From assembly GCA_023247275.1 (NCBI GenBank), contig JAHFGT010000005.1, forward strand, positions 124 to 64,123: a DNA stretch of 64,000 nucleotides. Direction: 5' to 3'. Positions 12,683 through 54,236 of this stretch are shown piece after piece. Every line of letters begins with the position of its first letter. Positions within the stretch are counted from its first letter, which is position 1. A program made the position numbers and the translations under genes. This stretch comes from Candidatus Omnitrophota bacterium (GTDB lineage: Bacteria > Omnitrophota > Gorgyraeia > Aquiviventales > Aquiviventaceae). The notes beneath the pieces are model-generated. The model was not told the origin of the DNA, searched no databases, and worked only from the letters and a program-made list of their open reading frames with translations.

Positions 12683-12697
12683 GCCGATGAATGGGTG

Positions 12698-12994: not shown

Positions 12995-13026
12995 CGACTA
13001 CTCAGCGGGCGAGGGATCATCTGTTG

Positions 13027-13055
13027 TTTGTAACACATGCCCTTGGCAAAGTCAA
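13027..13055 (-). promoter_or_regulatory. Candidate sigma70-type promoter for gatCAB
   Basis: On the minus strand: TTGACT (13055..13050), 17 nt, TACAAA (13032..13027). It lies 33 nt upstream of the gatC ATG. Confidence 0.35.
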
Positions 13056-13091
13056 CGCGCTGCTCGACGACGAGCTGTTGCGATCAGCGTC

Positions 13092-13946
13092 TCACTGGAC
13101 CGAAGGCTGTCTCACGGCCGCCCACAGACGTCCGAATGTTTCTATGGAGAGCTGCTCGGCCCGAACCCTTGGCGGCAACCCCAGCCGATTCAACAGGTCT
13201 TCAGCCTGTCGTTTCGTGATCCGGTGATGGCCGAAGACAACCAGCGCGTGCGCCAACGTCTTGCGTCGTTGGGCGAACGCGGTTTTCACCAACTCAAAGA
13301 ATCCGGACTCATCCGCTTCGGTCACCGGGGAGACGGTTCGCGGGATCAGCTCGAGACATCCGGACTCAACGCTTGGCTGAGGAAAAAATGCGCTCGGCGG
13401 AATCCGGAACAGTCGCTTGACCTGCCAGCCACATTGCACCAAGACGCTGAGTCGGCCGTACGCTTTCGTTCCTGGTTTGGCGATCAACCGGTCGACGACG
13501 TCGTCTTGCAGAATCAACACGGCGTGGCGCACAAACCGTCGATGATGAAAAAGGGTCACCAGGATCGGCGAGGTAATGTGATATGGAATCGCGCCGATGA
13601 CCACGGCCCCGGCGGTGCGTGCCCACGGGAATGTCAGGATATCATCGCACACGAGCTCGACATTGGGAGCACCAGCCAGCCGCTCGGCCAGGAGTTGACA
13701 GATGCGCCGGTCCACCTCGACCGCAATGACCCGCCCGGCGCGCTGCGCCAGCGACTCAGTGATGGCGCCTAACCCGGCCCCGATTTCCACCACGGTGTCG
13801 TGAGGCCTGATTCCAGATTCCGCGATCAGTCGGTCGATGCGCCGCGGATCAATCAGATGATGTTGGCCCAGCCGCTTGGTGAGGCGGATCCCATGCGCGC
13901 GGAGCAGGGTTGTGAGCGCGCCGGGTGTGAGCATTATCCTGCGCAC
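13092..13946 (-). CDS. rsmA: 16S rRNA (adenine1518/1519-N6)-dimethyltransferase
   Basis: LGQHHLIDPRRIDRLI, SAM motif VVEIGAGLGAITESL, and IPYHITSPIL. Confidence 0.85.
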   Translation of the reverse strand: MRRIMLTPGALTTLLRAHGIRLTKRLGQHHLIDPRRIDRLIAESGIRPHDTVVEIGAGLGAITESLAQRAGRVIAVEVDRRICQLLAERLAGAPNVELVCDDILTFPWARTAGAVVIGAIPYHITSPILVTLFHHRRFVRHAVLILQDDVVDRLIAKPGTKAYGRLSVLVQCGWQVKRLFRIPPSAFFPQPSVESGCLELIPRTVSPVTEADESGFFELVKTAFAQRRKTLAHALVVFGHHRITKRQAEDLLNRLGLPPRVRAEQLSIETFGRLWAAVRQPSVQ

Positions 13947-35545: not shown

Positions 35546-35621
35546 TGGTGGAGCAGAGGGGGATCGAACCCCTGGCCTCGACAGTGCGATTGTCGCGCTC
35601 TCCCAGCTGAGCTACTGCCCC
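35546..35621 (-). tRNA. tRNA-Ala (anticodon CGC), CCA encoded
   Basis: Minus strand: GGGGCAGTAGCTCAGCTGGGAGAGCGCGACAATCGCACTGTCGAGGCCAGGGGTTCGATCCCCCTCTGCTCCACCA. It folds by hand as a cloverleaf with anticodon loop AT-CGC-AC, the G3:U70 alanine identity pair, and T-loop TTCGATC. Confidence 0.93.
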
Positions 35622-35792: not shown

Positions 35793-36176
35793 TTAGCAGC
35801 TCGCTGGCAAACCGTAGGTTGGCGTATCGTTCGTACAGACCTTGCCGGAATCAAAGTTGGTCTGGATCGTTTTGCCACCAGCAACCCGGGTCGCCGTTCC
35901 TAAACTCCCTGCCGCCCCATAGTTCCACAGGGCGGAGTTGGCGATATCAACGTCCAGCTCGGTGAGGTTTGCCGTGTAGATGTTGGTCGCACTCCCCGCC
36001 CTGTACCGTTGTTCTGCCCCGCGCATCGTGGCCAACATCTGCAACGCCTCGGCTGACCGAGATCGTTCGGCCGTCCGGAAGTACTGCGGCAACGCAATTG
36101 TCGCGAGCACCGCGATGATCACCACGACCATCAACAGCTCCAGCAAGGTAAAACCCTGTTCTCTCTGCGTGTTCAT
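35793..36176 (-). CDS. pilA: Type IV (a) major pilin candidate
   Basis: MNTQREQG|FTLLELLMVVVIIAVLATIALPQY has the class III signal peptide with Glu+5. It is 127 aa with a C-terminal Cys pair (KVCTNDTPTYGLPASC). A strong SD (GAAGGAGGGGG) precedes it and a strong terminator follows. Confidence 0.8.
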   Translation of the reverse strand: MNTQREQGFTLLELLMVVVIIAVLATIALPQYFRTAERSRSAEALQMLATMRGAEQRYRAGSATNIYTANLTELDVDIANSALWNYGAAGSLGTATRVAGGKTIQTNFDSGKVCTNDTPTYGLPASC

Positions 36177-36248
36177 GACCCCCTCCTTCGTTCATCGACA
36201 GCTCATACGGATCATTGCAATGAACGCCAACACCTCCATTCGTATACT

Positions 36249-37481
36249 TTAGTGCACACGGACCCCGGTTGCCAAGCCAAAAATTGGCAAGTACATCGAG
36301 ATCACAATCGTCCCGACCAGGACCGCCATCACCGCAATGGCGATCGGCTCAAACAACACCGTCAACCGTTCGATAAAGGTTGAGACCCGTTCTTCATAGT
36401 ACGACGCTACCTTATCGAGCATCTTCCCCAGTTGGCCGATTTCTTCGCCGACCTGGATCATCTGGACCATCATCGGAGGAAACAAGGGGATCCGGCTCAT
36501 CGGCTCAGCCATCGGCTGGCCTTCGCGGACATACTCGCGAACATCCGCGATCGCCTGACCATACACTTTATTGGACGCGCTGTGCGACATGATTTCCAGG
36601 CTGAACAAAATCGGCACACCGCTATTCAGCAGGGTTGACAAGCCCCGGGAAAACTGGGCCAGTTGAAACTGCTGAAACAGTTTTTGGAAGACCGGGATCT
36701 TCAGCACGAGTCGATCCAACAGCCACCGACCCGACTCGGTTTGCAGATACCGCCGCAGCAGATGCCACGCGAGCACAAACCCGGCCAGCACGAGCACGAA
36801 ATAATGCCGGATGACGTCGCTGATTCCGACAATAACCCGTGTCATCAAGGGCAAGTTGCTGCCCAGCGACTTGAAGATCGTGCTGAAAATCGGAATGATC
36901 TTGATCGCGAACACGAGCATCACGACCACGCACGCAATCATCAGAAATGCCGGATAGGTGAGCGCGGTCATCGCTTTCCGCTGCAAGGTACGAGCCGACT
37001 CCAAATAACCGGCGAGCTGATCTAAGGAGGCGGCCAGGTTACCGCTCGCCTCCCCAGATTCCACGAGGTTCACCCAAAAAGACGTGAACAGTTTTGGGTG
37101 TTGCGCCATCGCTTGGTGTAACGCGCGTCCGGCTTCGACATCTTGCCGAATCTGCTCAACGGCCAGCAGCAGCGGGCGGCTCTCTACCTGGCTTGAAACA
37201 ATTTCCAGACTTTTCAACAACGGCAGGCCAGCCTCGATGAGCGTCGCCAGTTGTTGGCAGAAGAGCACCTTGTCATCAACGGTCACACGGCCTAAAAGCC
37301 GGCGCTGCACTGGCTGTTGTGTGAGCGTGTTGTGCGCTGCCCCATTGCTTCGCGAGAGCTGGGTGACGTACAGTCCCCGGTGCTGAAGAATACCGACCAC
37401 CTCATCTTCATCCACCGCTTCGAGGTGGCCGCTCTTCATCGCCCCGGATTGATCGCGAGCAAGATATACAAAATTTGGCAT
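36249..37481 (-). CDS. pilC: Type IV pilus / T2SS platform protein PilC/GspF
   Basis: 410 aa with a duplicated GspF domain and three TM segments. Typical PilC N-terminus FVYLARDQSGAMKSGHLEA. Confidence 0.9.
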   Translation of the reverse strand: MPNFVYLARDQSGAMKSGHLEAVDEDEVVGILQHRGLYVTQLSRSNGAAHNTLTQQPVQRRLLGRVTVDDKVLFCQQLATLIEAGLPLLKSLEIVSSQVESRPLLLAVEQIRQDVEAGRALHQAMAQHPKLFTSFWVNLVESGEASGNLAASLDQLAGYLESARTLQRKAMTALTYPAFLMIACVVVMLVFAIKIIPIFSTIFKSLGSNLPLMTRVIVGISDVIRHYFVLVLAGFVLAWHLLRRYLQTESGRWLLDRLVLKIPVFQKLFQQFQLAQFSRGLSTLLNSGVPILFSLEIMSHSASNKVYGQAIADVREYVREGQPMAEPMSRIPLFPPMMVQMIQVGEEIGQLGKMLDKVASYYEERVSTFIERLTVLFEPIAIAVMAVLVGTIVISMYLPIFGLATGVRVH

Positions 37482-37486
37482 GAGGG

Positions 37487-39199
37487 TTAGGTCCGTCCCA
37501 TCAGGATCACGCTCTCCACTTCTTCAAGGCTGGTCAGACCCTGCTGGACCTTTCGAAGGCCACCCTGCTCTAACGTGACCAGGCCGTTACGAATCGCTGC
37601 GTCCTTGATGAGGTGGGCGGCCGCGCCTTTGGTGACCAGTTCACGCACCTGTTCATTGATCTCCATCACCTCGTACGCACCCACCCGGCCGCGATATCCA
37701 GTTCCACTGCACGGTTCACACCCCTTGGCTCGGTAGATCGGTCCGGTGCCAAGGGCAAGCCGCTCGCGCAGCGCGGGTGACGGCTCATAGGATTCCCGAC
37801 ACTGGTCGCACAATCGCCGCACCAACCGCTGCGCCACGATCAGCGAGATCGTGGACGAGACCAGGTACGGGGCCACGCCAATATCCAGCAGCCGGGTGAC
37901 CGCTGACGGCGCGTCATTGGTGTGCACGGTGCTAAACACCATATGGCCGGTCAAGGCGGCTTGCACGCAGATTTCAGCGGTCTCCAGATCTCGGACTTCC
38001 CCTACCATGATAACGTCTGGATCTTGGCGAAGGAACGAACGTAAGCCGGCGGCAAAAGTCAGCCCGATGGACGGTTTGATCTGGACTTGGTTCACACCAT
38101 CCAGTCGGTATTCGACCGGGTCCTCGATCGTCAGGATATTTTTCTTTGGCGTCTTGATGGCGCTGAGTGCGGCATACAGCGTCGTGGTCTTGCCAGAGCC
38201 GGTCGGACCAGTCAACAACAACAGGCCGTACGGATCATGGATCACCGACTGGAACAATCCGAGTTCCCGCTCGTCAAATCCCAGCTGTTGCAGATCCAGC
38301 AGCTCTGGGATTTTCTTCAAAATTCTGACGACCACTTTTTCCCCATAGATGGTCGGGATGACCGACACCCGAAAATCGATCGACAGGCCTTCCATGCCCA
38401 TCATGAACCCGCCATCCTGGGGCAGCCGTTTTTCCGCGATATCCAGTTTGCACAAAATTTTAATGCGCGAGATAATCGCCGCGTGCAGCGCCCGAGCCGG
38501 CGGGCTGATCTCGTGCAACACCCCATCAATTCGGTACCGCAGGCTCAACCGCTCACGAAATGGTTCGATGTGGATATCGCTGGCGCGTTGCTTGATCGCC
38601 TGGCGAATGATGAGATCCACCAGCCGGATCACCGGCGCTTCCTGTGCCGCCTCTTTCAGACGATCCAAGTTGAGGACTTCTTCAGTCGCAAGGTCTTCTC
38701 CATTCGACAGCTGGTAGGAATGGCCGATGGCCTCCTGGAGCATCGTGTCTTCGCCATAGAAGGTGCTAATGGCTACTTCGAGGTCGGCTTTTGTCGTGAC
38801 GACCGGATGAATATCGCATCCGGTAAGGCGACTGAGGTTATCCATCGTCAGCAGATCCAGGGGATTGACGCAGGCCACCGTGAGAGAGTTGATGGTGCGG
38901 GACAACGGTAAGACCAAATGCTGCCGGGCAAACTCTGTGGGGACAAGTTGTTCGAGGCCTTGGCCTTTGGGAGGATTCAACAGGCCGCTGGCGGCTGAGG
39001 CGTATGGCACACTCAGCTGTTTGCTAAGCGCAGCGGCGATGTCCAGCTCGCTGACCATGCCGAGCTCGACCAAAATCTCACCGATGCGTTTGGTGGTCCC
39101 ATGCTGAGACTCCAGCGCTTTGGCCAGTTGGTCGACCGAGATCAGGCCGGCCTTGACCAGAATTTCGCCGAGTTTGTCGCCAAGTTTTAGAATTGGCAT
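37487..39199 (-). CDS. pilB: Type IV pilus assembly ATPase PilB with N-terminal MshEN-type domain
   Basis: [31 protein letters not shown], and CDQC...CEPCSGTGYRGRVGAYEVM. The N-terminus has a tandem 24-residue MshEN motif. The start is set at ATG 39199; the track uses GTG 39220. Confidence 0.9.
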   Translation of the reverse strand: MPILKLGDKLGEILVKAGLISVDQLAKALESQHGTTKRIGEILVELGMVSELDIAAALSKQLSVPYASAASGLLNPPKGQGLEQLVPTEFARQHLVLPLSRTINSLTVACVNPLDLLTMDNLSRLTGCDIHPVVTTKADLEVAISTFYGEDTMLQEAIGHSYQLSNGEDLATEEVLNLDRLKEAAQEAPVIRLVDLIIRQAIKQRASDIHIEPFRERLSLRYRIDGVLHEISPPARALHAAIISRIKILCKLDIAEKRLPQDGGFMMGMEGLSIDFRVSVIPTIYGEKVVVRILKKIPELLDLQQLGFDERELGLFQSVIHDPYGLLLLTGPTGSGKTTTLYAALSAIKTPKKNILTIEDPVEYRLDGVNQVQIKPSIGLTFAAGLRSFLRQDPDVIMVGEVRDLETAEICVQAALTGHMVFSTVHTNDAPSAVTRLLDIGVAPYLVSSTISLIVAQRLVRRLCDQCRESYEPSPALRERLALGTGPIYRAKGCEPCSGTGYRGRVGAYEVMEINEQVRELVTKGAAAHLIKDAAIRNGLVTLEQGGLRKVQQGLTSLEEVESVILMGRT

Positions 39200-39248
39200 G
39201 GTCGTTACCCACCGTAACACTGCCCGTCATGCTCAAGCCGAGTACCGC

Positions 39249-40895
39249 TTACAGACTACGTCGCTGTTCGAGCCGCGTGAGCGCCTGTTCGATCTGATCC
39301 TGACGCGCTGGCCCGAGCGCGGCCGCGGCACCGCCGGTTCCTGGCACCTCAGATTCTTGAAATACGCGAGGCGTGACCATCGCGATCAACTCCCGATCGG
39401 TCCCGCTGCGAGTTCGCTGTTTAAACAGCTCACCCAGAACGGGAATCTGTGACAGCCCTGGCACGCGGGGAAACGCGCGCTCATCGCGGCGGTTGATCAG
39501 CCCTCCCAGTATCAGGCTTTCACCTTGCCGAATGCGTACCAGCGATCGGACGCTCTTGGTCTGCGGGTCGACAATTGGATCGGTCGTCGTCGTGATCTCT
39601 GATGCCACGGTATCTGTCACCGATGGCTCAACCAGCATCGTGATGGAACCGTCCTCGTTGAGCTGGGGGGTGACGACCAAGACGATTCCGGTCGGTGCCC
39701 GCTCAGGTCCGGTATTACTGACCGTGCCACCGGTAATGACCACCGACTGGGGCCGGCTGATGGCTTGGTTTTTTTGGAGCCGCACCACCGCGCTCTCATT
39801 GTTCATGGTCAGCACGCGCGGACGAGCCAAAATGCGCGTGTCGGTATCCTGGCTGAGCGCCTGCAGTGTCGCGATCACTTGCGAGGCTTCCACGACCCCT
39901 AACTCGATTTGGCCAGTGCCGGTAAACTTCGGATCCTTTGCCCGGGTCAAATACTTCGCATCATTCACTGTACTTGACATCGTATTGAAAGGAAACTTCG
40001 TTGCGGCCTTCGCCGGAGTGAGCCCAACAGTCGTGATCGAGCTCGACGTGCCCCACGCCACCCCCAGATTCCGCACCGTGCCTAACGTGGACTCAAACAG
40101 ATCGGTCTCGATCATGATCTGCGGCGTCTTCACGTCAAGCTTCTCGATCACCGTCTCAATCTTCTTGAGGTTATCCGGCACATCGGTGATGATCATCGAG
40201 TTGGTCCGTTCGTCAACAACCAGACTGCCCTGCCCGGTGAGGAGTTGCTGGACGATGAGATCCAATCCCAATAGTTCGCTTGCGCTGCCCGCGCCACCGG
40301 TCGCACCACTTGAAGCGTTGGATGTCCCTGCGCCACCACTGGCACTGCCGCTCCCAGAACCTCCGCTCGACCCCAGCGTAACGCCCTGCGCAGTGCTCGT
40401 GCCAGAGCTACCGATCATCCCCCGCAGTTGGCTGCCTGACGCCTCAACCGCTCGGCTTAGACGTGAAGTCGATAGATGCGCATACTTCAAGGTGTAGATC
40501 TTCGTGCTCGGCGCGCCCGCTGGCGCTTCACCCTGCAGAGGGGTCTTCGTCGGATCGGCCCGGACCATGTACACTTCGCTCCCTGGAGGCCGTTCATACA
40601 GCAGCCCGCCGGTCTCTAAAATTCGGTCCAGCGCATCGACGGCTGAGACATCTTCCAAGTAGAGGGTAATGGTGCGGTTCTCGATGTCTTTGCTGGCGAT
40701 CACATTGATCCCGGTCTGTTTGGAGAACGCCTTGAGCACGTCCTTGAGCGGCGCGTTTTCAAACTCCATGGAAATTCGAATCTGTTCTGGCTCGTGTTCG
40801 GTTGCCGACCGAGTTGGTGGTGCCGCCAACGCTCCATCACCCAGCATTCCGATCGCGCTGAGAACAATGCCCAAGACCCGGACCAATCGACTCAT
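39249..40895 (-). CDS. pilQ: Secretin (PilQ/GspD family)
   Basis: Signal peptide, N0-like domain ISMEFENAPLKDVLKAFSKQTGINVI, and C-terminal secretin domain ...VPGLSQIPVLGELFKQR....ELIAMVTPRV. A Gly/Ser-rich insert lies at residues ~152-206. Confidence 0.85.
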   Translation of the reverse strand: MSRLVRVLGIVLSAIGMLGDGALAAPPTRSATEHEPEQIRISMEFENAPLKDVLKAFSKQTGINVIASKDIENRTITLYLEDVSAVDALDRILETGGLLYERPPGSEVYMVRADPTKTPLQGEAPAGAPSTKIYTLKYAHLSTSRLSRAVEASGSQLRGMIGSSGTSTAQGVTLGSSGGSGSGSASGGAGTSNASSGATGGAGSASELLGLDLIVQQLLTGQGSLVVDERTNSMIITDVPDNLKKIETVIEKLDVKTPQIMIETDLFESTLGTVRNLGVAWGTSSSITTVGLTPAKAATKFPFNTMSSTVNDAKYLTRAKDPKFTGTGQIELGVVEASQVIATLQALSQDTDTRILARPRVLTMNNESAVVRLQKNQAISRPQSVVITGGTVSNTGPERAPTGIVLVVTPQLNEDGSITMLVEPSVTDTVASEITTTTDPIVDPQTKSVRSLVRIRQGESLILGGLINRRDERAFPRVPGLSQIPVLGELFKQRTRSGTDRELIAMVTPRVFQESEVPGTGGAAAALGPARQDQIEQALTRLEQRRSL

Positions 40896-40917
40896 CGTTC
40901 CCCCTTGCCGTGCTGCA

Positions 40918-41493
40918 TCACTGCGCTCCCTCCCGATGAAATGGAAATGTCATGGCAAACCGCGTCCCCTGCACATCAACCACGACCCCACCGCGGTCAA
41001 TCGATACGATGGTCGCGTCTTTGATGTGGTCACCCACGCTGTAGACCTGCCCATCGATCAGCGCTTTCGAGCCTGCGCTGGTCCACAAGATCCCTTCCAG
41101 AGCCACCGCAGGCGGCTTAGGTGGTGGCGGTGGGGTGGGTTGTTGTTGGGCAACCGGCGCGGGCACATCGACCGGTGGGTGTTCTTCTGGTTTTGGCAGC
41201 AGACTGGCCATCGGATCACGCAGGTTTGAGGCGGTATACTCAACCGGCGGCGTCAGGCTTGTGGTCGGTCCTGGCTGATCAACTTCTACTGTCGATCCCA
41301 GCGCGTTGGCGTATCGTGAATCAATGTCATTCATCTTTCGAAGCCCGGCCATCACCTGGGCAGGGGCTGATCCGCTCGAGGTGGATCCCCCTGCGCTGCG
41401 CCTTGCCATGTTGTGCCAGACTTGGAACAGCAGAAAGCCGATGCCGAACACGATGATGGCCCGCTCAAGTTGGGATTTCATCCGAGGGTCCAT
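40918..41493 (-). CDS. PilP/GspC-like inner-membrane-anchored periplasmic protein
   Basis: N-terminal TM helix, a Pro-rich linker, and a C-terminal small beta domain LEGILWTSAGSKALIDGQVYSVGDHIKDATIVSIDRGGVVVDVQG. Position between pilO and the secretin. Confidence 0.45.
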   Translation of the reverse strand: MDPRMKSQLERAIIVFGIGFLLFQVWHNMARRSAGGSTSSGSAPAQVMAGLRKMNDIDSRYANALGSTVEVDQPGPTTSLTPPVEYTASNLRDPMASLLPKPEEHPPVDVPAPVAQQQPTPPPPPKPPAVALEGILWTSAGSKALIDGQVYSVGDHIKDATIVSIDRGGVVVDVQGTRFAMTFPFHREGAQ

Positions 41494-41496
41494 GGC

Positions 41497-42006
41497 TTAT
41501 CCGCTCTTTTGGGCCACGGTGGGCAATGGCACCGAAAAACTGCTAATGGTGATCCGAACCGACAACACCCCGGTCTGTGGACCGGTTCCAACCTCAAGAT
41601 CGTCAACTTGAAGAAATGCTGGCGCATTTTCAAGTTGACTGAGGAATGTGCCCAGCTGATGGTACGACGATTCGAACTGGACATTGACCCCCACCTGGGT
41701 AAACTCTTCCAGCGGCTTCGGCGGCAACGGCGTCAACGAGGTCACATTGATCCCGACATTTTGCGCCAGCGTATGCACCTGCTCAAACAGCCACTCGGTT
41801 TCCACTTCAGGCGCCAGGTGGCTGCGGATCTGATCCAGTTGCCGAAGCCGGCTGGCCAGGTCCTCCCGTAGCGCTTGTCGCTGCTGCTCCTCGCTAAACT
41901 GCTGGTGAATGTTAACCAGCTTGGCTTGCTCCCTCGCATAGATTCGCGAACCCAGTAGCCCTGCGGCCAGCAGCACCAGCAGGCCAGACACCAGCCCAGG
42001 TCGCAT
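41497..42006 (-). CDS. pilO: PilO-like pilus alignment protein
   Basis: N-terminal TM helix, a coiled-coil, then ...GINVTSLTPLPPKPLEEFTQVGVNVQFESSYHQLGTFLSQLENAPAFLQVDDLEV. One-nt TAATG overlap with the upstream gene. Confidence 0.65.
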   Translation of the reverse strand: MRPGLVSGLLVLLAAGLLGSRIYAREQAKLVNIHQQFSEEQQRQALREDLASRLRQLDQIRSHLAPEVETEWLFEQVHTLAQNVGINVTSLTPLPPKPLEEFTQVGVNVQFESSYHQLGTFLSQLENAPAFLQVDDLEVGTGPQTGVLSVRITISSFSVPLPTVAQKSG

Positions 42007-43544
42007 TACAGCACCCCTTTCGAACGATAGTTAACCTCGAAGGTGCGGTAGGAGATGTCCTGCTGTTCGGCTGCCTCTGCCACTTTGCCCAACTCCGCAC
42101 GCGCAAACCCCTGCAACAACGTCTGATCTTGCCGAATGTGCTGGAAGAACCGTTGGATCACATCAATCTCTTGACCGGCCTCTGCGCGAAAACACGCTCC
42201 GCGCAATTCCAAGAGGGGGCGCTGAGGTTTAAACCGGTCCACGATATTGTGGTACCCGATGCTCTGAACCCACACGCCGTCAGGCAACGCCTTGGCTAAG
42301 GTGTCCAGCTTTTCTGTCATCGAAATGCGGCCATCAATCGTCCGCTTCAAAAATGCCAGCCGGCTGTCAACCTGCTGCTGCAGATCCTCCAACTCCTGCT
42401 GACCCTGTTCCTTCAATCCCCATCCCACATCAGGAAACGCTCGCACCGTGTGTTCCATCTGCCGACGGGCGGTTGTGACCTGGTACTCTTCAATCCAGAA
42501 AAAAACCCCCAGAATCACCGCAGCCATCGAGAGCTGCCCTATCAACGGTTTGACCAGCCGGCGACTCTCAATCGACGCGACATTAAGGAGTTCTTGGGAT
42601 GTCTTTTTGACCGTGGTGTCGGTCCGGCCGCTCATCAGTTGGATCGCGCTCCGTGGCTGCAGCTCGCGCAATGCCAACCCGGCGACCGCAGCATCCTCAA
42701 GTGTGAATCCGTCTTGTCGAATCTCTTTGGGGATGGTGCCGATTCCGACCGAGCATTTGAGCTGGCTTTTCAGCCGCTCGACAATCGCGTCCACCGCCGA
42801 CGGCGGGCCATACACCGCCACATGGCGGATCATTGCTTGGGGGTTTTCTCGAGTGAAAAATTCAAACGAAATACCCAGCTCACTGAGTAACGACTCAATT
42901 TCCGGTTGGGGTGCTGGGCCGGTAGGGCCTACGGCGGCTGGTGAGGTCAATGCCACCTCACGGGCAAAATACGGCAACCGGTCTTTGGCGATGACAATAT
43001 GGGCGGATTGCTGGCTGACTTCAACAATTCCGACAAACTGTTTGTCGCTGCCCAGCGGCGCGCCACCGCCGAGCCGAGCCAAGCTCAGTGACCGTGGTTC
43101 GATGAACAACGGCTCAATCCCGGCGGCGCGCAGCGTCCCCTGAATTTTTGCGAACGCTTCTGTGCGCATGCCGATGAACACCACCGACAACATCCGGGTG
43201 CCGCGCTGTTTGACAGCTTGGTAGCCCCAGACCAGCTCTTCAATCTTAAATGGAATGTACTTTCGCGCCTCGAACTGTACCGCACGATCGAGCTCGGCCC
43301 GAGGAAAGATCGGCATGGTAAACGACCGTAGCAGCACATCCCGCATCAGCACCGCCACGCCGACCTGAGCTGTCGTGATCCCTAAATGATCGACGACGCC
43401 GCGAATCGCCTGTGCGATGGAGGCTTCATCATTGGCAGCGACCGGCAACTTCGCAGCCCGTAACTTCAGCGTGGACAAAACCCGCTGAGCGGAAAACGCC
43501 TCAACAACCCCAACCCCTAAGACGATGCCTGCGATTTGTGCCAT
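42006..43544 (-). CDS. PilM-PilN fusion (actin-like cytoplasmic domain + TM + PilN-like periplasmic domain; GspL-like architecture)
   Basis: 512 aa. The N-terminal ~330 aa is PilM-like. A TM helix (SMAAVILGVFFWIEEY) follows. The C-terminal ~150 aa has the PilN-type segment LDTLAKALPDGVWVQSIGY. Confidence 0.7.
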   Translation of the reverse strand: MAQIAGIVLGVGVVEAFSAQRVLSTLKLRAAKLPVAANDEASIAQAIRGVVDHLGITTAQVGVAVLMRDVLLRSFTMPIFPRAELDRAVQFEARKYIPFKIEELVWGYQAVKQRGTRMLSVVFIGMRTEAFAKIQGTLRAAGIEPLFIEPRSLSLARLGGGAPLGSDKQFVGIVEVSQQSAHIVIAKDRLPYFAREVALTSPAAVGPTGPAPQPEIESLLSELGISFEFFTRENPQAMIRHVAVYGPPSAVDAIVERLKSQLKCSVGIGTIPKEIRQDGFTLEDAAVAGLALRELQPRSAIQLMSGRTDTTVKKTSQELLNVASIESRRLVKPLIGQLSMAAVILGVFFWIEEYQVTTARRQMEHTVRAFPDVGWGLKEQGQQELEDLQQQVDSRLAFLKRTIDGRISMTEKLDTLAKALPDGVWVQSIGYHNIVDRFKPQRPLLELRGACFRAEAGQEIDVIQRFFQHIRQDQTLLQGFARAELGKVAEAAEQQDISYRTFEVNYRSKGVL

Positions 43545-43652: not shown

Positions 43653-45323
43653 TCAGCGCTGCTGGACAAGCCGATTCACAGTCTCTTCTAACGTTGCAAT
43701 CCGTTGCTGCTGAGACTGTAGCTGTATATTGAGCTGCTCGATATACCGATGCGCATACTCTAGCTCCTGCAACAGACCGGCAAAATCGTCATCAAGACTT
43801 CGTAACCTGGGTTCGGTACCCTTCTCTTGGCTCGGAGCGATCGCCGGCAAATGCTTGTGCGCCCACATTTCGGCAGCATGCTGTTCGATGCTTGGCAACT
43901 TGTAGTCTGGTTGAAAAACAAAATCTGGCAGGACGGTTCCGTTCCGCAAAATCTGACCCCACACCGACAAGTTGACCGGCACCGCAGGAGGCGGTGCGCC
44001 GATCGTCGTGTTTCCGATGATTTGTACCTTTTCTCCGAGCGCTGGATTCGCTGTCCCGATTCCGACATTGCCATTCGCATCAATGACAAATGGGGTGTCA
44101 TCGCCAGGAAGAGGCAGCAATGGGTTGAACTGATCATCGATCCGTAGCACAGGCGCAACCGCAGCAGGATCCGCTTGCATAATGTGCAATTGGGCCCAAG
44201 CCCCAACGTTATTCGGAACCCCAATCGCGACAAACCCTGTATCGCCGGTGATCTTCATGCGCAGGGGAATGGGACTAGAGCCAGTGTCTGTCGTACCAAA
44301 CAGCATATCCCCTGGATTGCCGCTCATGCCAACGATCGGCACTTGTCCAATGTACCCGCGATGATTCCAGTTGGAACGGAACATGATCCAACTTTTCCCG
44401 CCGGAATCGTTGAGATCAATGGAGGCATTACGATTGGCCCCGGTCGCGGCGCGCAGCCGCAGGCTGGCATCATAGGTGGGGCGCGCCTGGATCACCATAG
44501 TGGGGATGTCTGGCTTGGTGGGATCAAAATCATCGACGTTTAACAGCCCGATTCCGACCTGTCCGTTCTGTTCCCACACCATCCGCGGGGGCACCGCGGT
44601 GAAATCCTGGACAAGATTATCCGTGATGGCGACATCGCGACCGCCAAAGAAGGTCGTGCTGATAGTCGGGCGACCGAAGAAGGCTTGCGGTGAAGTATCG
44701 CCGAAACTGAGCTGCATCCCACTGGCCAACCAGGAGGGCGCACCCCAGGACCGGATTCGCAAAATCATCGGCTGCTGAACCCCAGAGGCCAGGTCTAAAA
44801 ACGTATTGGGATCAGGAAGTCCGGATGCCACACCAGATCCGAGCAGGAAGCCTCTAACCTTGCGAGGACTTCCTGCTGTTTCATCCATGGTCATGCCATA
44901 GTTCCCGTCAGAGGTATGCAGTTCAAAGCTCGGAAATGCTCCTGACGAGCCGCCACCCCCATACATCTGGACTGACGTACCCCACATGCCGAGGACCCGG
45001 GCATTTTCGCTGCGGCCACCGAGGTCCCGCGGCCAGACTAACCAGCCGGTACTATGGAGCGGTTGGCTGTATCGAGTGTTCCAATTGACGTTGTCCATAT
45101 AGAGGTTACCGCCGGTGATTGACATTCTCATCTCGGCACCGATATTTGGCGTGAGGGGGTCTGGGGTAGTCGGTGGAGTCCCGACCCCGACCCGTATCTG
45201 GTTATAGACGCCGCGGGGCGACGGGTAGTAGGTACTTAACGTCAGGTCTTCAGCAGCCACATAGCTGATCAGACCGATCGACACGATCATCCCGACCCCA
45301 AATGTCCATCCATGCGTCCGCAT
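43653..45323 (-). CDS. Secreted fibre-like protein of unknown family (556 aa) in the PilY1 position
   Basis: Sec-type signal (…ISYVAA|EDL), not a prepilin leader. It contains the LSTYYPSPRGVY motif, a Gly-rich beta-type body with NGNVGIGTANPALGEKVQIIG, and a C-terminal module DFVFQPDYKLPSIEQHAAEMWAHKHLPAI followed by a coiled-coil. Confidence 0.6.
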   Translation of the reverse strand: MRTHGWTFGVGMIVSIGLISYVAAEDLTLSTYYPSPRGVYNQIRVGVGTPPTTPDPLTPNIGAEMRMSITGGNLYMDNVNWNTRYSQPLHSTGWLVWPRDLGGRSENARVLGMWGTSVQMYGGGGSSGAFPSFELHTSDGNYGMTMDETAGSPRKVRGFLLGSGVASGLPDPNTFLDLASGVQQPMILRIRSWGAPSWLASGMQLSFGDTSPQAFFGRPTISTTFFGGRDVAITDNLVQDFTAVPPRMVWEQNGQVGIGLLNVDDFDPTKPDIPTMVIQARPTYDASLRLRAATGANRNASIDLNDSGGKSWIMFRSNWNHRGYIGQVPIVGMSGNPGDMLFGTTDTGSSPIPLRMKITGDTGFVAIGVPNNVGAWAQLHIMQADPAAVAPVLRIDDQFNPLLPLPGDDTPFVIDANGNVGIGTANPALGEKVQIIGNTTIGAPPPAVPVNLSVWGQILRNGTVLPDFVFQPDYKLPSIEQHAAEMWAHKHLPAIAPSQEKGTEPRLRSLDDDFAGLLQELEYAHRYIEQLNIQLQSQQQRIATLEETVNRLVQQR

Positions 45324-45336
45324 CTACCTCCCCCTT

Positions 45337-46014
45337 TCAGCACGGGTTAGGAGCACTACTTATCGACCCTGTAGGTTCCATGCCTGAACTTGAATTTTGT
45401 GCAGTCGCATTCAAATTGGTGTACGCACCAGCTCGCAGGACCACCTGACTTTGATACGGACGGTTCGTGCTGGGTGTTACTCCTTCTGAAATAACCTTGA
45501 TCTGCAGCAGGTTGTTGTCCGGGCTTGGCGGATCACTTCCAAGTGCCTGCTGGGTTGAGTCGGCATCGTTGTAGGTCACCGTCAGCCCGGCCAGTGAACT
45601 GTCTGGGGCTTGACCGTAGGTGATTGGCGTGGGACAACTGCTGGTCACCGGATAATAGAATAAAATCTGTTTCAGACCTGAATCATACCGGTACTGGCCC
45701 CAGGTGTAATTGGCGGCTCGATCGAAACAGTCTGGAGTGGGGATCGGCTGGCACGCCGCCTCGGTTGGCACTGGCACCCGAAATTGCACATTGTTAGCCG
45801 ATACGACCACAACACGGTCCGCCATCTGCAACCATTTCCCCATATGCGTTAAGGCCAATTCAGCCTCACCGTTGCGGTTCAGGTTGCGTCGAATGTCTTC
45901 AGAGATATAGACACGGGTCATGTCAACCTGCGTAATGGCCAGGATCAGGATCATCGCCAGTGTTGTCGCAATGAGGATTTCGAATAACGTCACCCCGCGC
46001 TCGCGGTGGGTCAT
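45337..46014 (-). CDS. Minor pilin, PilW-like (225 aa)
   Basis: MTHRERG|VTLFEILIATTLAMILILA is a prepilin leader with Glu+5. The ATG 46014 forms an ATGA overlap with the upstream gene. Confidence 0.6.
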   Translation of the reverse strand: MTHRERGVTLFEILIATTLAMILILAITQVDMTRVYISEDIRRNLNRNGEAELALTHMGKWLQMADRVVVVSANNVQFRVPVPTEAACQPIPTPDCFDRAANYTWGQYRYDSGLKQILFYYPVTSSCPTPITYGQAPDSSLAGLTVTYNDADSTQQALGSDPPSPDNNLLQIKVISEGVTPSTNRPYQSQVVLRAGAYTNLNATAQNSSSGMEPTGSISSAPNPC

Positions 46015-46400
46015 TGTTGAACCCAGCTCACTTTGGCCGTCACCTGGATGCAATCTGGCAACCCAGCGGTCCCGCCGCACTGGGGCATCGCTATGACGGT
46101 GTACGTACGGGTGAATTTAGCATTTGGCGGCTGGACAGGATCTGGCACTGGCGTTGGCGTGCCGATGTTCACCACCGCCGCGCAGGTCGTCGGATTAAAC
46201 CAACCATTATCGCAGGCGACTTGATTGCGCATCCGCTCAATGGTTTCCTGTGTGTATTGGATCGCTTCCACCTTGTTGGGAGAGCGCTGCGAAAACTGGG
46301 CGGCCATGATAAAGGCCAGCATCGCGCCACCGGCGACGAACGCGATCAGGATCGCGGCGACGACTAATTCCAACAACGTTGTCCCTCGTTCAGACATCAC
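46011..46400 (-). CDS. Minor pilin, PilV-like (129 aa)
   Basis: MMSERG|TTLLELVVAAILIAFVAGG is a prepilin leader with Glu+5. Confidence 0.6.
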   Translation of the reverse strand: MMSERGTTLLELVVAAILIAFVAGGAMLAFIMAAQFSQRSPNKVEAIQYTQETIERMRNQVACDNGWFNPTTCAAVVNIGTPTPVPDPVQPPNAKFTRTYTVIAMPQCGGTAGLPDCIQVTAKVSWVQQ

Positions 46401-46406
46401 CGACTC

Positions 46407-46808
46407 CTAGGGACAGCTGGTCCAGGTTCCTGATGGGGTGCGGTTGCCATCGGTTACCTTCAGCCAACTGTTATTGCACTGCCCGCCTTGCCGGGTCGCT
46501 TTGGCGGTGAACTTGGCGCACCCGGCAGTGCAGTTGACGGCAAATTGAATCGACCCGTCCGGCGGGTTTGGATCTTCCATGCTGATGTCTTTCCATGCTC
46601 CGGGCGGCACGTCCAGATACTTGCTGTTGGCAAAGAAATAGACCCGTTCCCCGGCATAGGTGGCCATCAACAGATCCTCTGCCTCGCGTCGACGGCCCAA
46701 CTCGATCGTCTTCGTGAAGTTTGGATAGGCGATCGCGGCCAGGACAGCAAGGATGACGATGGTCATCAGCACTTCGCTGAGCGTAAATCCATCCCGGGCG
46801 CGCTTCAT
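46407..46808 (-). CDS. Pilin-like protein (FimU/PilE-like, 133 aa)
   Basis: MKRARDG|FTLSEVLMTIVILAVLAAIAYPNF. The ATG 46808 overlaps the upstream stop by 1 nt (TGATG). It has four Cys in the C-terminal half. Confidence 0.65.
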   Translation of the reverse strand: MKRARDGFTLSEVLMTIVILAVLAAIAYPNFTKTIELGRRREAEDLLMATYAGERVYFFANSKYLDVPPGAWKDISMEDPNPPDGSIQFAVNCTAGCAKFTAKATRQGGQCNNSWLKVTDGNRTPSGTWTSCP

Positions 46809-47173
46809 CAGTTCAGCGTGTAGGTGACATGTACCTGAAGCTTGCGACCTTGGCATGGCGTTGCGGTGCACGGGGGGATTTCGACATCGACAAAATCGTT
46901 CGGGTCGGTGGTCGTTCCATTCCCGTTGACATCGAACACCACATCAGCGTCTCCTGCTGGATCACTCCACGTCGGGTTTTGCCAGAGCTGCTGCATGGCC
47001 CAAACCAGACCGGCCTCTGCCGCGTACCGGGCTTGGAGTCGGCGCACGTGATAGGCTGACTGGTTGATCCGGGCCATCGACATGGTGAGCGCTGCGAACG
47101 CCGCGATCGAGAACACCATCGCGGTGATAATTACCAATCCCAGCGCAATACCGCGTTCGTTGCTTGGCCGCAT
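46808..47173 (-). CDS. PilX-like minor pilin (121 aa)
   Basis: MRPSNERGIALGLVIITAMVFSIAAFAAL matches the PilX_N pattern (ERG.AL......, no Glu+5). GAGGAG SD lies 7 nt upstream. Confidence 0.6.
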   Translation of the reverse strand: MRPSNERGIALGLVIITAMVFSIAAFAALTMSMARINQSAYHVRRLQARYAAEAGLVWAMQQLWQNPTWSDPAGDADVVFDVNGNGTTTDPNDFVDVEIPPCTATPCQGRKLQVHVTYTLN

Positions 47174-47184
47174 CTGAGCTCCTC

Positions 47185-47226
47185 AAAAAATGCAACAGCC
47201 GAACTACTGTCCGGTAGCTCGGCTGT
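47185..47226 (-). terminator. Intrinsic terminator/attenuator hairpin immediately upstream of the pilX SD
   Basis: Minus-strand RNA: ACAGCCGAGCUAC-CGGACA-GUAGUUCGGCUGU (13-bp stem including one G.U), then UGCAUUUUUU. GAGGAGCUCAG-AUG follows directly. Confidence 0.6.
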
Positions 47227-47256
47227 CTCATAACGCCGGGTGTGCACTATTGTCTA

Positions 47257-47319
47257 CTAGCCCGGTCGTCTCAGGTGAGACCCGCAGCTTTGCGCCCCCG
47301 CCTCACGGCGCCCTGTCGC
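47257..47319 (-). ncRNA. Candidate GEMM-I-like (c-di-GMP-I class) riboswitch aptamer in the minor-pilin leader
   Basis: Minus-strand RNA: GCGACAGGGCGCC-GUGA-GGCGGGGGCGC-AAA-GCUGCGGGUCUC-ACCU-GAGACGACCGGGCUAG. Two adjacent hairpins are present, the first capped by a GNRA (GYRA) loop. They are joined by AAA within CGCAAAGCUGCGGGUCU. This resembles the conserved ACGCAAAGCYnCGGG core I recall for GEMM-I. It is not verified with a covariance model. Confidence 0.35.
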
Positions 47320-47438
47320 AACGCTCCTGCGACAAGGTCTGCCACCTGTCCTTCTTAAGGAAAGCGCGCACGTTTCGGTGGCAGCGGTTAACCCTTTTCG
47401 GATCCAGTAACATACATTTCTTTAATATGTACGACAAA

Positions 47439-47468
47439 AGTATATCTCCGACGACAATCAACTGTCAA
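47439..47468 (-). promoter_or_regulatory. Sigma70-type promoter of the minor-pilin operon leader
   Basis: On the minus strand: TTGACA (47468..47463), 18 nt, TATACT (47444..47439). A second TTGACG lies 9 nt upstream. This predicts a ~260-nt 5' UTR. Confidence 0.5.
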
Positions 47469-47548: not shown

Positions 47549-47881
47549 TTAGCGAGGATCAACGGTGTCAAGCACCCACCGCGCATAGGGAGGATGGCCG
47601 TGCGTGACCGGCAGGGCGATGATTTCAGGAACCTCATAGGGATGCAGCGAGCGGATGAGTCGGCACAGATCGGCAAATCGATTCGAGCTGGTCTTGATGA
47701 CGAGTAAGACCTCACGAGCTTGCTCAACCTGACCCTTCCACACATAGGTGGATTCTACATCTGCGTTGATCACGTTGACGCAGGCCGCGACCCGCTGCTG
47801 AACTAGCGCATGCGCCAACCGCCGAGCCACCGTGCGAGTCGGGCAGGTCACCAGCACAACCACCACTCGACCGCGCGCCAT
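47549..47881 (-). CDS. cutA: Divalent-cation tolerance protein CutA
   Basis: VVVLVTCPTRTVARRLAHALVQQRVAACVNVI...VESTYVWKGQVEQAREVLLVIKT...LHPYEVPEIIALPV. The start is set at ATG 47881. Confidence 0.85.
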   Translation of the reverse strand: MARGRVVVVLVTCPTRTVARRLAHALVQQRVAACVNVINADVESTYVWKGQVEQAREVLLVIKTSSNRFADLCRLIRSLHPYEVPEIIALPVTHGHPPYARWVLDTVDPR

Positions 47882-47886
47882 GGCTG

Positions 47887-48090
47887 TTAGGGGCGGCGCA
47901 GCGACACGTGAAGATCTGCTCCGTCTTGTCGTACGATCACATGACCCTCGCGGGCCAGCCATCCGAGACTCATCAACACCAGCGTCTGTGACCGATCAAT
48001 CGACTTGGGTAGTTGACTGAATAACGTTTCCCCATGATTATCGAGATAATGCCAGATCTCTCCGGCCACAATTCCGATCTCGGTGATCAT
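47887..48090 (-). CDS. Winged-helix protein, DUF2582-like (67 aa)
   Basis: IGIVAGEIWHYLDNHGETLFSQLPKSIDRSQTLVLMSLGWLAREGHV matches the DUF2582 pattern (IG..AG.IW..L...G......L........ALGWLARE). Confidence 0.6.
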   Translation of the reverse strand: MITEIGIVAGEIWHYLDNHGETLFSQLPKSIDRSQTLVLMSLGWLAREGHVIVRQDGADLHVSLRRP

Positions 48091-48108
48091 GCGTCCTCCT
48101 GTTCCTTG

Positions 48109-48498
48109 CTATTCTGACAGCGTCGCGATATGCACCTGCTCATGCCCGGTTTCCCGACAGACATCCCACAGCTCGATCAATTTGTCCACGTACGCATGGC
48201 GATCCGCTCGGATCAGGATCGGTTTCCCATCCGCGGCGTGCTCCAAGCGATCTCGAACCTGCTTGAGCGAGACGACCTGCTCATCCCAGTATACGACATG
48301 GTCCTTCGTCAGTGTCAGCATGATGTTGGACGGTGAGATCTGCTCGCTGCTGGTCGCTTTCGGCAGCGAAATCTTGATTCCTGGATGCAGCACAAAGCTG
48401 GACGTCAGCATGAAGTAGATCAGCTGCTGAAACACCACGTCGATCATCGGCGCGATATCGACCGAGACCGGTTCGCTGATTCGACGTCGCAGTCGCAT
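48109..48498 (-). CDS. ExbD/TolR biopolymer transport protein
   Basis: VDIAPMIDVVFQQLIYFMLTSSF is the N-terminal TM signature. A periplasmic domain with LIRADRHAYVDKLIELWDVC follows. Confidence 0.8.
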   Translation of the reverse strand: MRLRRRISEPVSVDIAPMIDVVFQQLIYFMLTSSFVLHPGIKISLPKATSSEQISPSNIMLTLTKDHVVYWDEQVVSLKQVRDRLEHAADGKPILIRADRHAYVDKLIELWDVCRETGHEQVHIATLSE

Positions 48499-48501
48499 CG
48501 T

Positions 48502-49200
48502 TCAGTGAGGAGCTCCGGGCCGACGCCAGCCAGCAACGATGGTCGCGGCTTTCTCCATATGAAACTGCGTTTCGCTCACCCGCCCGACAAAATAGTTGTA
48601 CACCAGGATCGTCGGGATGGCGACGATCAACCCTGCGACGGTGGTGATCAAGGCTTCCCACACGCCCCCGGCCAAATCGCCTGGGCTGACTGGGCTCCCG
48701 CCACCGGATTTCATTTGAATCACTTGGAAGGCACGGACCAGTCCGGTCACTGTTCCCAGCAGCCCCAACAGAGTGGCCACTTGCGCCAAGGTGGAGAGCC
48801 AGCGCAGGTGTTGTTCAATAGCTGGCAACTCTTGGTAGGCGGCATCTTCCATGGCTTCGTCGATCTCTTTTGCGGTCGCTTCATGTGACGCCAGCCCGGC
48901 GAGGACGACCCGGGCTACCGGACCTCGCCACGTCTCGCACAACGCCTTAGCCTCTGGCCATCGGCGAGAATCCACAGCGGCGCGCAGCTGCTCAAAGAAT
49001 CGGTCCATGTTGCGCCCATGATTCAGGCTGAAAAAGAACAGCAGCCGTTCCATGGTCAGTGTGAGCGAGAAGATCGAGCACATGACAATCGGAATCATCA
49101 CCGGTCCGCCACGGTGGATGATGTCGACAAAAGCGTACAGCAGCCAGCCGAGCCCGGCGGCGGTGATCAGAAACACGACGAGTTGGATCGCGCGACTCAT
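48502..49200 (-). CDS. MotA/TolQ/ExbB proton-channel protein
   Basis: Three TM helices, with C-terminal signature LSTLAQVATLLGLLGTVTGLVRAF......GGVWEALITTVAGLIVAIP. Confidence 0.8.
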   Translation of the reverse strand: MSRAIQLVVFLITAAGLGWLLYAFVDIIHRGGPVMIPIVMCSIFSLTLTMERLLFFFSLNHGRNMDRFFEQLRAAVDSRRWPEAKALCETWRGPVARVVLAGLASHEATAKEIDEAMEDAAYQELPAIEQHLRWLSTLAQVATLLGLLGTVTGLVRAFQVIQMKSGGGSPVSPGDLAGGVWEALITTVAGLIVAIPTILVYNYFVGRVSETQFHMEKAATIVAGWRRPGAPH

Positions 49201-49213
49201 GATGACGGATCGC

Positions 49214-54138: not shown

Positions 54139-54187
54139 GTTGATGCGTTTGGGACGCCCGTGTGCGGTGGAGAAATGGATGGGACGC

Positions 54188-54218
54188 AGAGGCCAGACCC
54201 GGGAAGGGCCTGGCCTCT
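54188..54218 (-). terminator. Strong hairpin (terminator-like) between the small basic ORF and uvrA
   Basis: Minus-strand RNA: AGAGGCCAGGCCC-UUCCC-GGGUCUGGCCUCU (13-bp stem). The downstream sequence GCGUCCCAUCCAUUUCUCC is only moderately U-rich. Confidence 0.4.
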
Positions 54219-54236
54219 TCAACGTCTGTGAACGAC

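Follow-up and report, generated by a model that had tools for sequence, protein, structure and literature searches.

What does an Omnitrophota bacterium encode between the minor-pilin genes and the pilM gene of its type IV pilus-like locus, and why is it encoded there? The question is raised by a stretch of 64,000 nucleotides from a Candidatus Omnitrophota genome (assembly GCA_023247275.1, contig JAHFGT010000005.1, positions 124 to 64,123 of the forward strand), here called the window, in which this place is held by a gene for a 556-residue protein, here called the fibre. An earlier note on the same DNA, made from its letters alone, had likened the place to the slot of the tip adhesin PilY1. 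The answer favoured here, with slightly less than an even chance of being right, is that the fibre is a modular adhesin, exported by Sec and probably trimeric, which its N-terminal tag would direct to the adjacent machine for display at the surface or pilus tip; this machine resembles both a type IVa pilus (T4aP) and a type II secretion system (T2SS). Proteins of this kind, mosaic secreted fibre adhesins with phage-like parts, are already known. The Omnitrophota-restricted tag family, its recurrent cassette position in a T4aP/T2SS-like minor-pilin operon and the probable riboswitch control of the unit appear to be new; no description of them was found in the searchable literature on GNVGIGT and Omnitrophota pilus fibres, where Seymour et al. 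2023 discuss the T4aP of Omnitrophota and no tip adhesin.

The open reading frame (ORF) contains every motif that the earlier note had quoted from it, including LSTYYPSPRGVY at residues 29-40, ANGNVGIGTANPALGEKVQIIGNTTIG at residues 414-440 and DFVFQPDYKLPSIEQHAAEMWAHKHLPAIAPSQEKG at residues 466-501. As far as its sequence can be read, the product is built of three shared modules: a signal peptide with the tag, a stalk of VGIG-type repeats and a C-terminal module. Cleavage of the signal peptide is predicted between VAA and ED; the protein has no cysteine, and its mature part is 10.9% glycine. Naming the protein by sequence was rejected, as no Pfam family matches at E<=0.1 and neither NCBIfam nor a phmmer search of the PDB returns a match. 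Specifically, Pfam at this threshold shows no PilY1/Neisseria_PilC domain (PF05567; NCBIfam likewise gives nothing relevant), no YadA_anchor, YadA_stalk or YadA_head, the C-terminus being a coiled coil instead, and no Peptidase_S74 (PF13884); an SDxxxK motif is also missing. Unlike all four minor pilins encoded beside it, the fibre has no prepilin leader and no N_methyl match, and its conserved motif comes after the hydrophobic stretch, not ahead of it. These results bear out the earlier description of a non-pilin, non-PilY1, Sec-type fibre-like protein.

An exhaustive full-length HMMER search of 1.84 billion cluster representatives returned 2,702 matches at E<=1e-3 and 502 at E<=1e-10; at E<=1e-30 the fibre matches only itself, so that no full-length homologue is known. 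Nearly all of the 502 representatives match residues ~435-552 alone, and the C-terminal module likewise explains nearly all of the top 150. Residues ~300-440 resemble, in partial matches, the usual repeat unit of VGIG-type proteins, and residues ~60-290 have no detectable homologue in this collection. VG(I/V)G-type motifs stand at residues 45, 256, 365 and 420, the last being a canonical GNVGIGT repeat. The motifs of the fibre are not due to chance, since the N-terminal motif and the C-terminal module each recur in hundreds of other proteins.

The N-terminal motif, which the earlier note had listed correctly and whose significance it had not recognised, defines a family. The shared module spans residues ~10-56 and has the consensus AE(D/E)xTxTTYYPSPRGVYxxLR after a signal-peptide-like helix. 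Two alignments, one of 21 and one of 40 members, show no variation at E25, T31, Y32, Y33, P34, P36, R37 and G38, and mean column identity outside the tag is 13%. A scan for the pattern [TS]TYYPSPRG, covering one genome per species in 185,579 species, gave 54 matches, of which 51, in 49 loci, are confirmed relatives. Their hosts are metagenome-assembled genomes (MAGs) titled Candidatus Omnitrophota or Omnitrophica, or 'Planctomycetales' with the same synteny, the exception being one unclassified MAG. A search of 5.8 billion proteins with a tag profile gave 406 matches, and all of the named ones are Candidatus Omnitrophica. The alignments and searches place the fibre in a previously undescribed, Omnitrophota-restricted family with a constant N-terminus and a variable C-terminus.

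The variability lies in the tips. The 63 unique tag-bearing ORFs that were extracted are alike in signal peptide, tag and first repeats, and from there on they diverge completely. Their tips include a Peptidase_S74 chaperone (3 of 40 family members, paralogues in loci L003, L030 and L055), a Gly-rich ending ...VVISW (Gly_rich_2), several small Cys-rich knobs, Gp53-like_C, YadA_head repeats and the DFVF..HLP coiled-coil module of the window fibre. A further tip signature, GDLLVTSSKPGYAMRAD...G(M/T)L(I/L)GKALEPL, has no Pfam model; it is the commonest tip among fibres of the pilus slot (C-termini in L004, L034, L045, L046, L056 and L089). Two MAGs, nzgw325 and NC_groundwater_667, hold 15 and 11 separate tag loci, often as tandem pairs or triplets, in which near-identical signal peptides and tags are joined to unrelated tips, several of them of the Gly-rich ...VVISW kind. 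These constant tags on unrelated tips suggest that tip swapping or gene conversion has been at work in the multi-copy MAGs.

The C-terminal module (residues ~435-556) has the consensus PDYVFEPDYxLESIEEHAxxMWxxKHLPAV...LEELEKAHIYIEQL, followed by a heptad coiled coil whose a and d positions are hydrophobic in 13 of 15 cases over the last ~50 residues. The earlier note had recognised both the coiled coil and an unnamed module recurring at C-termini. Both stand: many bacteria have the module, which is present in at least 500 protein clusters, and 85% of its copies finish within 15 residues of the protein's C-terminus. It is carried by signal-peptide proteins with very different heads, for example YadA_head or dockerin. 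A word-index search with the C-terminal 127 residues gave no match, although the exhaustive HMMER search shows the module to be widespread. Its profile has no significant match in the PDB (best E 0.13) and finds only coiled-coil noise in Pfam. A degenerate S74 chaperone was considered and not accepted, hhalign giving a probability of 23% on the coiled-coil half alone.

The machine itself is ambiguous between T4aP and T2SS. Pfam and NCBIfam agree with the gene order read earlier: PilX/GspK-like, pilin, PilV-like, PilW-like, fibre, PilM-N fusion, PilO/GspM, PilP-like, secretin, ATPase, PilC/GspF and major pilin, with an AT-rich spacer of 108 nt between the fibre stop and PilM-N. No PilY1 homologue was found with Pfam among the proteins of this locus. 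The two kinds of machine score about equally, at 624 bits for PilB against 606 for GspE (ATPase), 364 for GspF against 337 for PilC (platform protein) and 199 for PilQ against 173 for GspD (secretin), and GspM is the sole match above a curated cut-off (65.9 against 60). Together with the GspK match and the GspL-type PilM-N fusion, these scores make the earlier comparison with Pseudomonas-type loci too specific. They also render export of a periplasmic cargo by the machine plausible.

Whether the position of the fibre gene is peculiar to this genome was addressed by tblastn of the window pilus proteins against all retrieved loci, which carry L numbers here. In 12 assemblies, from species genomes, one to three tag genes lie directly between the PilW-like gene and PilM-N, and the linked loci have a wider synteny in common: UvrA, a TPR protein, ExbB, ExbD, DUF2582, CutA, minor pilins, fibre(s), PilM-N, O, P, Q, B, C and A. 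As a control for circularity, 80 metagenome loci were retrieved through PilM-N rather than the fibre, and those with both PilW-like and PilM-N genes present were counted. In about 12 distinct loci, including L089 with the variant TSYYPSPRG, the slot is occupied by one to three tag genes; the slot of L118 holds a 489-residue signal-peptide protein with a degenerate N-terminus. Slot occupants range from 275 to 650 residues and have unrelated C-termini. The slot, empty in further loci discussed below, is thus a recurrent but facultative cassette site and not an obligatory component of the machine.

Several observations were made beside the slot. The three tandem fibres of L046 (5185-8899), whose tags are degenerate (TFYPSPRAMY, QTYYPSPRGFY), are inserted ahead of the PilW-like gene, after the PilV-like one, and L004 has two near-identical fibre paralogues (10001-13834) with an antisense PIN-domain gene between them (11724-12143). 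A small signal-peptide protein of 140-169 residues, which may be an accessory or chaperone, stands between the PilW-like gene and the fibre and overlaps the fibre start in L049 (9462-9971) and L053 (539-961); it has no counterpart in the window. The PilW-like proteins end in a Pro-rich segment with a cysteine at or beside the very end (...SAPNPC, ...SVAPCP, ...PPTVCS, ...NPASCP). A disulfide link from this cysteine to the fibre is excluded, since the fibre has none. Directly upstream of the minor-pilin operon of the window (47549-54222, minus strand) lie UvrA, a TPR protein of ~720 residues, ExbB, ExbD, DUF2582 and CutA, a block conserved at the same place in many species (L029, L042, L043, L045, L047, L050, L054, L056 and L067). 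Directly downstream of the major pilin is a tRNA-Ala(CGC) gene (35546-35621, minus strand), the sole RNA gene of the window above the Rfam gathering score.

The fibre gene is also placed within a unit of expression. Its start is coupled to the preceding stop, with a gap of 13 nt and a strong ribosome-binding site, GGGGGAGG, a few bases 5' of the ATG in the window and with overlaps of 4 nt in L029 and L049. No terminator-like site was found on the coding strand between the PilW-like, fibre and pilM genes. The leader of the window contains, in order, a promoter-like site, a sub-threshold match to the c-di-GMP-I-GGC aptamer (a riboswitch for cyclic di-GMP, c-di-GMP), a terminator-like hairpin and the PilX-like gene. 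In the Rfam alignment the hairpin shares nucleotides with the 3' strand of the aptamer, and it may be the expression platform of the riboswitch. Of eight syntenic loci, five have riboswitch matches above the gathering score at the equivalent leader position; in a sixth locus the match that exceeds it lies within the slot.

A custom covariance model, R1, was built from the syntenic copies and searched against 1.24 Mb of related loci, where it gave 36 matches; the window leader scores 42 bits (E 7e-8). A copy stands just upstream of the PilX-like gene in 20 related loci and in the window. In nine loci a second copy lies directly upstream of PilM-N, and in some of these (e.g. L045, L056, L062 and L080) it stands between the fibres and pilM-N; R1 finds no second copy before pilM-N in the window. 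Because the second copy separates them from pilM-N, the fibres belong to the minor-pilin unit, and in those loci the minor-pilin unit and the pilMNOPQ unit are each riboswitch-controlled. Judged by these signals, the fibre gene lies in a terminator-free minor-pilin transcription unit that is probably led by a riboswitch. The coordinates are collected in Table 1.

Table 1. Coordinates of the fibre gene, its modules, the surrounding locus and related features; positions without an L number are those of the window.
Feature	Position	Strand	Remarks
Fibre gene	43653..45323	(-)	556 aa, ATG start, ORF confirmed
Signal peptide, Sec-type, residues 1-24	45252..45323	(-)	MRTHGW + hydrophobic stretch + VAA; read from the sequence (A-x-A rule)
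Constant N-terminal tag, residues 25-44, EDLTLSTYYPSPRGVYNQIR	45192..45251	(-)	defines the family; proposed docking or export peptide
Gly/Asn/Thr-rich beta-type body, residues 45-429	44037..45191	(-)	four VG(I/V)G-type motifs
C-terminal module, residues 466-556	43656..43928	(-)	DFVFxPDYxLxSIExH...HLP motif, then helix, then heptad coiled coil of ~50 residues
Promoter-like site TTGACA, 18-nt spacer, TATACT	47439..47468	(-)	consensus match only, 11/12
c-di-GMP-I-class riboswitch aptamer, divergent copy, 5' leader	47209..47351	(-)	RF03167, 27.1 bits, below gathering score 59
Terminator-like hairpin, 14 bp + U-run	47194..47227	(-)	20 nt upstream of pilX-like ATG
PilX/GspK-like minor pilin, first gene of unit	46808..47173	(-)	NF037980 T2SS_GspK 1e-6; weak PilX_N
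FimU/GspH-like pilin	46407..46871	(-)	N_methyl 1.5e-7; weak ComP_DUS
PilV/GspI-like minor pilin	46011..46400	(-)	TIGR02523, N_methyl
PilW/GspJ-like minor pilin	45337..46080	(-)	N_methyl, PRK10557; syntenic partner in all linked loci
PilW-like Pro-rich Cys end	45337-45360	(-)	likewise in L029, L042, L049, L053
PilM-PilN fusion, GspL-like architecture	42006..43544	(-)	PilM_2 6.7e-13, TIGR01175, Amuc_1101_fam
Rest of machine	35793..42006	(-)	Pfam/NCBIfam matches
PilO/GspM	41497-42006	(-)	
PilP/GspB-C-like	40918-41493	(-)	
Secretin	39249-40895	(-)	
ATPase	37487-39220	(-)	MshE-type c-di-GMP-binding N-domain
PilC/GspF	36249-37481	(-)	
Major pilin	35793-36176	(-)	
Leader riboswitch copies	L029 4629-4710; L047 7493-7574; L049 7018-7099; L054 7099-7181; L106 2944-3025; and others		mostly GGC-variant
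Second riboswitch copies	L045 13797-14039; L056 15056-15140; L061 435-515; L062 6288-6380; L065 4941-5112; L080 7286-7367; L086 1202-1256; L109 9736-9880; L118 5940-6061		
Tag loci of multi-copy MAGs	L008 9992-13790; L009, L010, L015, L017, L019, L025, L038		
pheS-pheT small tag proteins, 107-124 aa	L057/L058 8001-8375; L059 8001-8324; L060 575-898		

Base composition adds little. The earlier note had tallied GC contents of 43%, 58% and 52% and suggested that the tip module might be more recently acquired or fast-evolving. The three values are reproduced exactly in the rows at 45361, 45421 and 45481, but these rows lie in the PilW-like gene and not in the fibre. The fibre gene itself has 56.2% GC, with a value at third codon positions (GC3) of 0.62, against 59.6% for the window. 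Segments of the same size have a standard deviation of 1.7 points, and the gene lies at their 3rd percentile. This dip of 3.4 points is common to the PilW-like gene (54.7% GC, GC3 0.59), and a value akin to the codon adaptation index, at 0.66 for the fibre gene and 0.71-0.75 for the rest of the pilus genes, does not decide the matter. Recent horizontal acquisition, for which this is weak evidence, was not accepted; the mildly low GC fits a faster turnover where the minor-pilin unit ends, as would suit a cassette-like slot.

Structure prediction with AlphaFold2 (AF2) was of limited help. The full-length monomer, from a multiple sequence alignment (MSA) of 23 sequences, has a mean predicted local distance difference test score (pLDDT) of 51.7 and a predicted template modelling score of 0.27, too weak for a fold search. 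Its only confident parts are the signal helix, a short helix at residues 479-488 and a helix at residues 510-555; the last 40 residues reach a pLDDT of 91-98 and the body stays below 50. A model of the first 110 residues (94-sequence MSA) has a pLDDT of 65 (65.2), with 85-95 for the signal helix at residues 4-23. The tag is predicted as coil in the monomer, at a pLDDT of 60-66. Such a prediction fits, and does not prove, a peptide that would become ordered only through a partner or oligomerisation.

The route proposed for the fibre would begin with Sec export and cleavage after VAA, leaving the ~20-residue peptide E(D/E)xTxTTYYPSPRGVYxxLR as the mature N-terminus. This tag would act as an address or docking peptide, bound in the periplasm by the tip complex of minor (pseudo)pilins (PilX/GspK-, FimU-, PilV- and PilW-like). 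The growing filament would take the fibre through the secretin and display it at or near its tip. There the VGIG-repeat stalk would project the variable C-terminal module, in the window fibre DFVFxPDY..HLP and the coiled coil, for oligomerisation and/or binding, and different tips on one tag would come from paralogues encoded in the slot or at other places in the genome.

A comparison with known systems shows which parts of this route have precedents. PilY1/PilC proteins of Pseudomonas, Neisseria and Myxococcus are, like the fibre, large non-pilins with a Sec signal that are encoded with minor pilins, and both are proposed to ride the minor-pilin tip complex and mediate adhesion. The fibre differs in having no PilY1 C-terminal beta-propeller and in a slot that holds 0 to 3 genes. 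The conserved docking part of PilY1 is C-terminal and its N-terminus is variable; in the window fibre family this arrangement is reversed, with the N-terminus conserved and the C-terminus variable. To our knowledge, substrate recognition by the tip complexes of type IV pili (T4P) or T2SS has been demonstrated so far only for the type IVb (T4b) exoproteins TcpF and CofJ, which are the closest mechanistic precedent for the proposed tag docking. In TcpF of V. cholerae and CofJ of enterotoxigenic Escherichia coli, a disordered mature N-terminal segment with a critical tyrosine serves as export signal, to which the tip minor pilin binds (PMC10120004, PMC6048534, PMC9565799). The fibre shares with them a Sec-type signal, a gene in a pilus operon and an N-terminal mature segment that is unstructured, as the coil of the tag in AF2 suggests. 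In contrast, TcpF and CofJ are single globular exoproteins of T4b systems with a system-specific signal, whereas the fibre belongs to a T4a/T2SS-like machine and one tag is found on dozens of paralogues.

For overall architecture the closest likeness is with the mosaic adhesive trimer (MAT) fibres of Bdellovibrio bacteriovorus. In the account by Caulton et al. 2024 (PMC10769870), these comprise 21 paralogues with a signal peptide, a constant N-terminal part, a trimeric stalk and S74 or non-S74 tips; their surface anchor is given as unknown, and the authors raise a possible link to T4P. In architecture, both families have a signal peptide, then an N-terminal part that is constant within each family, a beta-rich stalk in which VG-type loop motifs occur, mosaic tips with or without S74, many paralogues (21, and at least 15 loci in one Omnitrophota MAG) and a phage-like flavour, and a host-dependent lifestyle has been proposed for both organisms. 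By their descriptions they are nonetheless set apart: the constant part of the Omnitrophota family is a motif of ~20 residues, that of MAT fibres a domain of ~130 aa, and no linkage like the placement of tag genes in a T4P/T2SS operon is described for MAT in the accessible text. The tip of the window fibre (DFVF..HLP and coiled coil) also has no sequence match to a solved structure. Phage tail fibres and tailspikes with Peptidase_S74 share the GNVGIGT-type repeats, a constant N-terminal attachment end and a variable distal end, and the C-terminal coiled coil of the window fibre is arranged like the end of S74 domains. Unlike them, the window fibre has no S74 domain or SDxxxK, carries a signal peptide and matches no phage genome.

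Several results weigh against the machine-addressed adhesin, and some of them favour a pilus-independent, MAT-like envelope fibre, a possible if doubtful alternative in which the tag would anchor the fibre to a component of the outer membrane or of another part of the envelope, and the gene would lie in the pilus locus merely as a guest of a permissive insertion hotspot or through co-regulation of functions in attachment. The AF2 monomer models (pLDDT 51.7 and 65.2) amount to no structural evidence, and proteins of other phyla join variable heads to a constant C-terminal module, which makes the polarity of the fibre ambiguous. Most paralogues are dispersed: of the 49 genome loci, 37 have no link to pilus genes, and no neighbouring gene recurs among them. 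R1 finds no riboswitch at the dispersed loci of the two multi-copy MAGs. Small tag proteins (~105-125 aa) with the variant TYYPAPYGAY stand between pheS and pheT in two Omnitrophota lineages, a context as compatible with a general role in the envelope as with one in the pilus; they are secreted, combine the tag variant EDITLTTYYPAPYGAY with one GNVGIGT repeat, and have an odd housekeeping context for a fibre family. In about eight of the loci retrieved through PilM-N the slot is empty and the PilW-like gene abuts PilM-N with gaps of <600 nt; the machine does not need a locally encoded fibre. MAT fibres are distributed across the surface of the predator cell (PMC10769870). An envelope fibre is less easily reconciled with the very specific insertion point, which about 24 loci have between the last minor pilin and pilM-N and L046, once, between PilV-like and PilW-like, with the translational coupling of fibre starts to the gene before them, a PilW-like one in the window and L029, and with a gene inside the minor-pilin unit and its probable riboswitch control. 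A conserved partner gene was sought beside the unlinked paralogues, and only antisense shadow ORFs were found.

The near-equal T2SS and T4aP scores, GspM above its cut-off, the GspK match and the GspL architecture are also what would be expected of a T2SS-like exporter that releases the fibre, the tag being an export signal cleaved or released after transit and the protein acting off the filament, for example in coating the cell or binding a host. The export signal of TcpF is proteolysed after secretion (PMC10120004), and many scattered substrates with one signal fit a secretion system. This explanation is distinctly improbable: a long stalk with a coiled coil resembles a tethered adhesin rather than a soluble factor, and the paralogues have S74-type and knob tips, as attached fibres typically do. 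A highly diverged PilY1/PilC orthologue, or another structural part of the pilus, would account for the Sec-type signal and the position after the minor-pilin genes. It is very hard to sustain when no PilY1 domain is detected, the slot occupants vary in size and C-terminus, the slot can be empty, and the N-terminus also occurs on dozens of unlinked paralogues. Least credible is a remnant of a prophage or tailocin tail fibre. The GNVGIGT-type repeats, the S74 chaperone of some paralogues and phrog_9942 ('tail fiber protein'), matched by 4 of 24 C-module segments, have a phage character, but the protein has a signal peptide and an operon position conserved across species. A prophage origin of the gene was rejected, as tblastn of the fibre against 50,697 phage records returned nothing at E<=1e-3 and no phage genes flank it.

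The machine-addressed adhesin, tentative as it is, bears on the biology of the phylum. Omnitrophota are uncultured, mostly ultra-small bacteria thought to be attached to or to prey on other cells. Few systems for attachment have been predicted in this phylum, and type IV pili belong to these few (PMC10066038). Partner recognition has a testable candidate in the fibre family described here, which is restricted to the phylum, joins one tag to many tips and is found repeatedly in the minor-pilin operon; its interchangeable tips suggest a pilus-linked grip on different host or prey surfaces. The short tag motif can be used to mine such adhesins from metagenomes, and the DFVF..HLP/coiled-coil module, with at least 500 clusters and no Pfam or PDB entry, merits definition as a family. 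The family also offers a genomic hint on the anchor of Bdellovibrio MAT-type fibres and on substrate recognition by T4P/T2SS tip complexes. A bolder extension, which is speculative and rather less likely, is that the T4aP/T2SS-like filament serves Omnitrophota as a universal vehicle on which a whole library of phage-like trimeric fibres can be mounted. The ~20-residue tag (TTYYPSPRGVY) would plug into the minor-pilin tip, a retractable pilus would bear interchangeable tips drawn from the cassette slot (0 to 3 genes) and from dispersed loci, and c-di-GMP riboswitches would control the minor-pilin operon and the slot fibres. If true, this would be a new principle of pilus-tip modularity and would provide a candidate anchor for MAT-type fibres in predatory bacteria.

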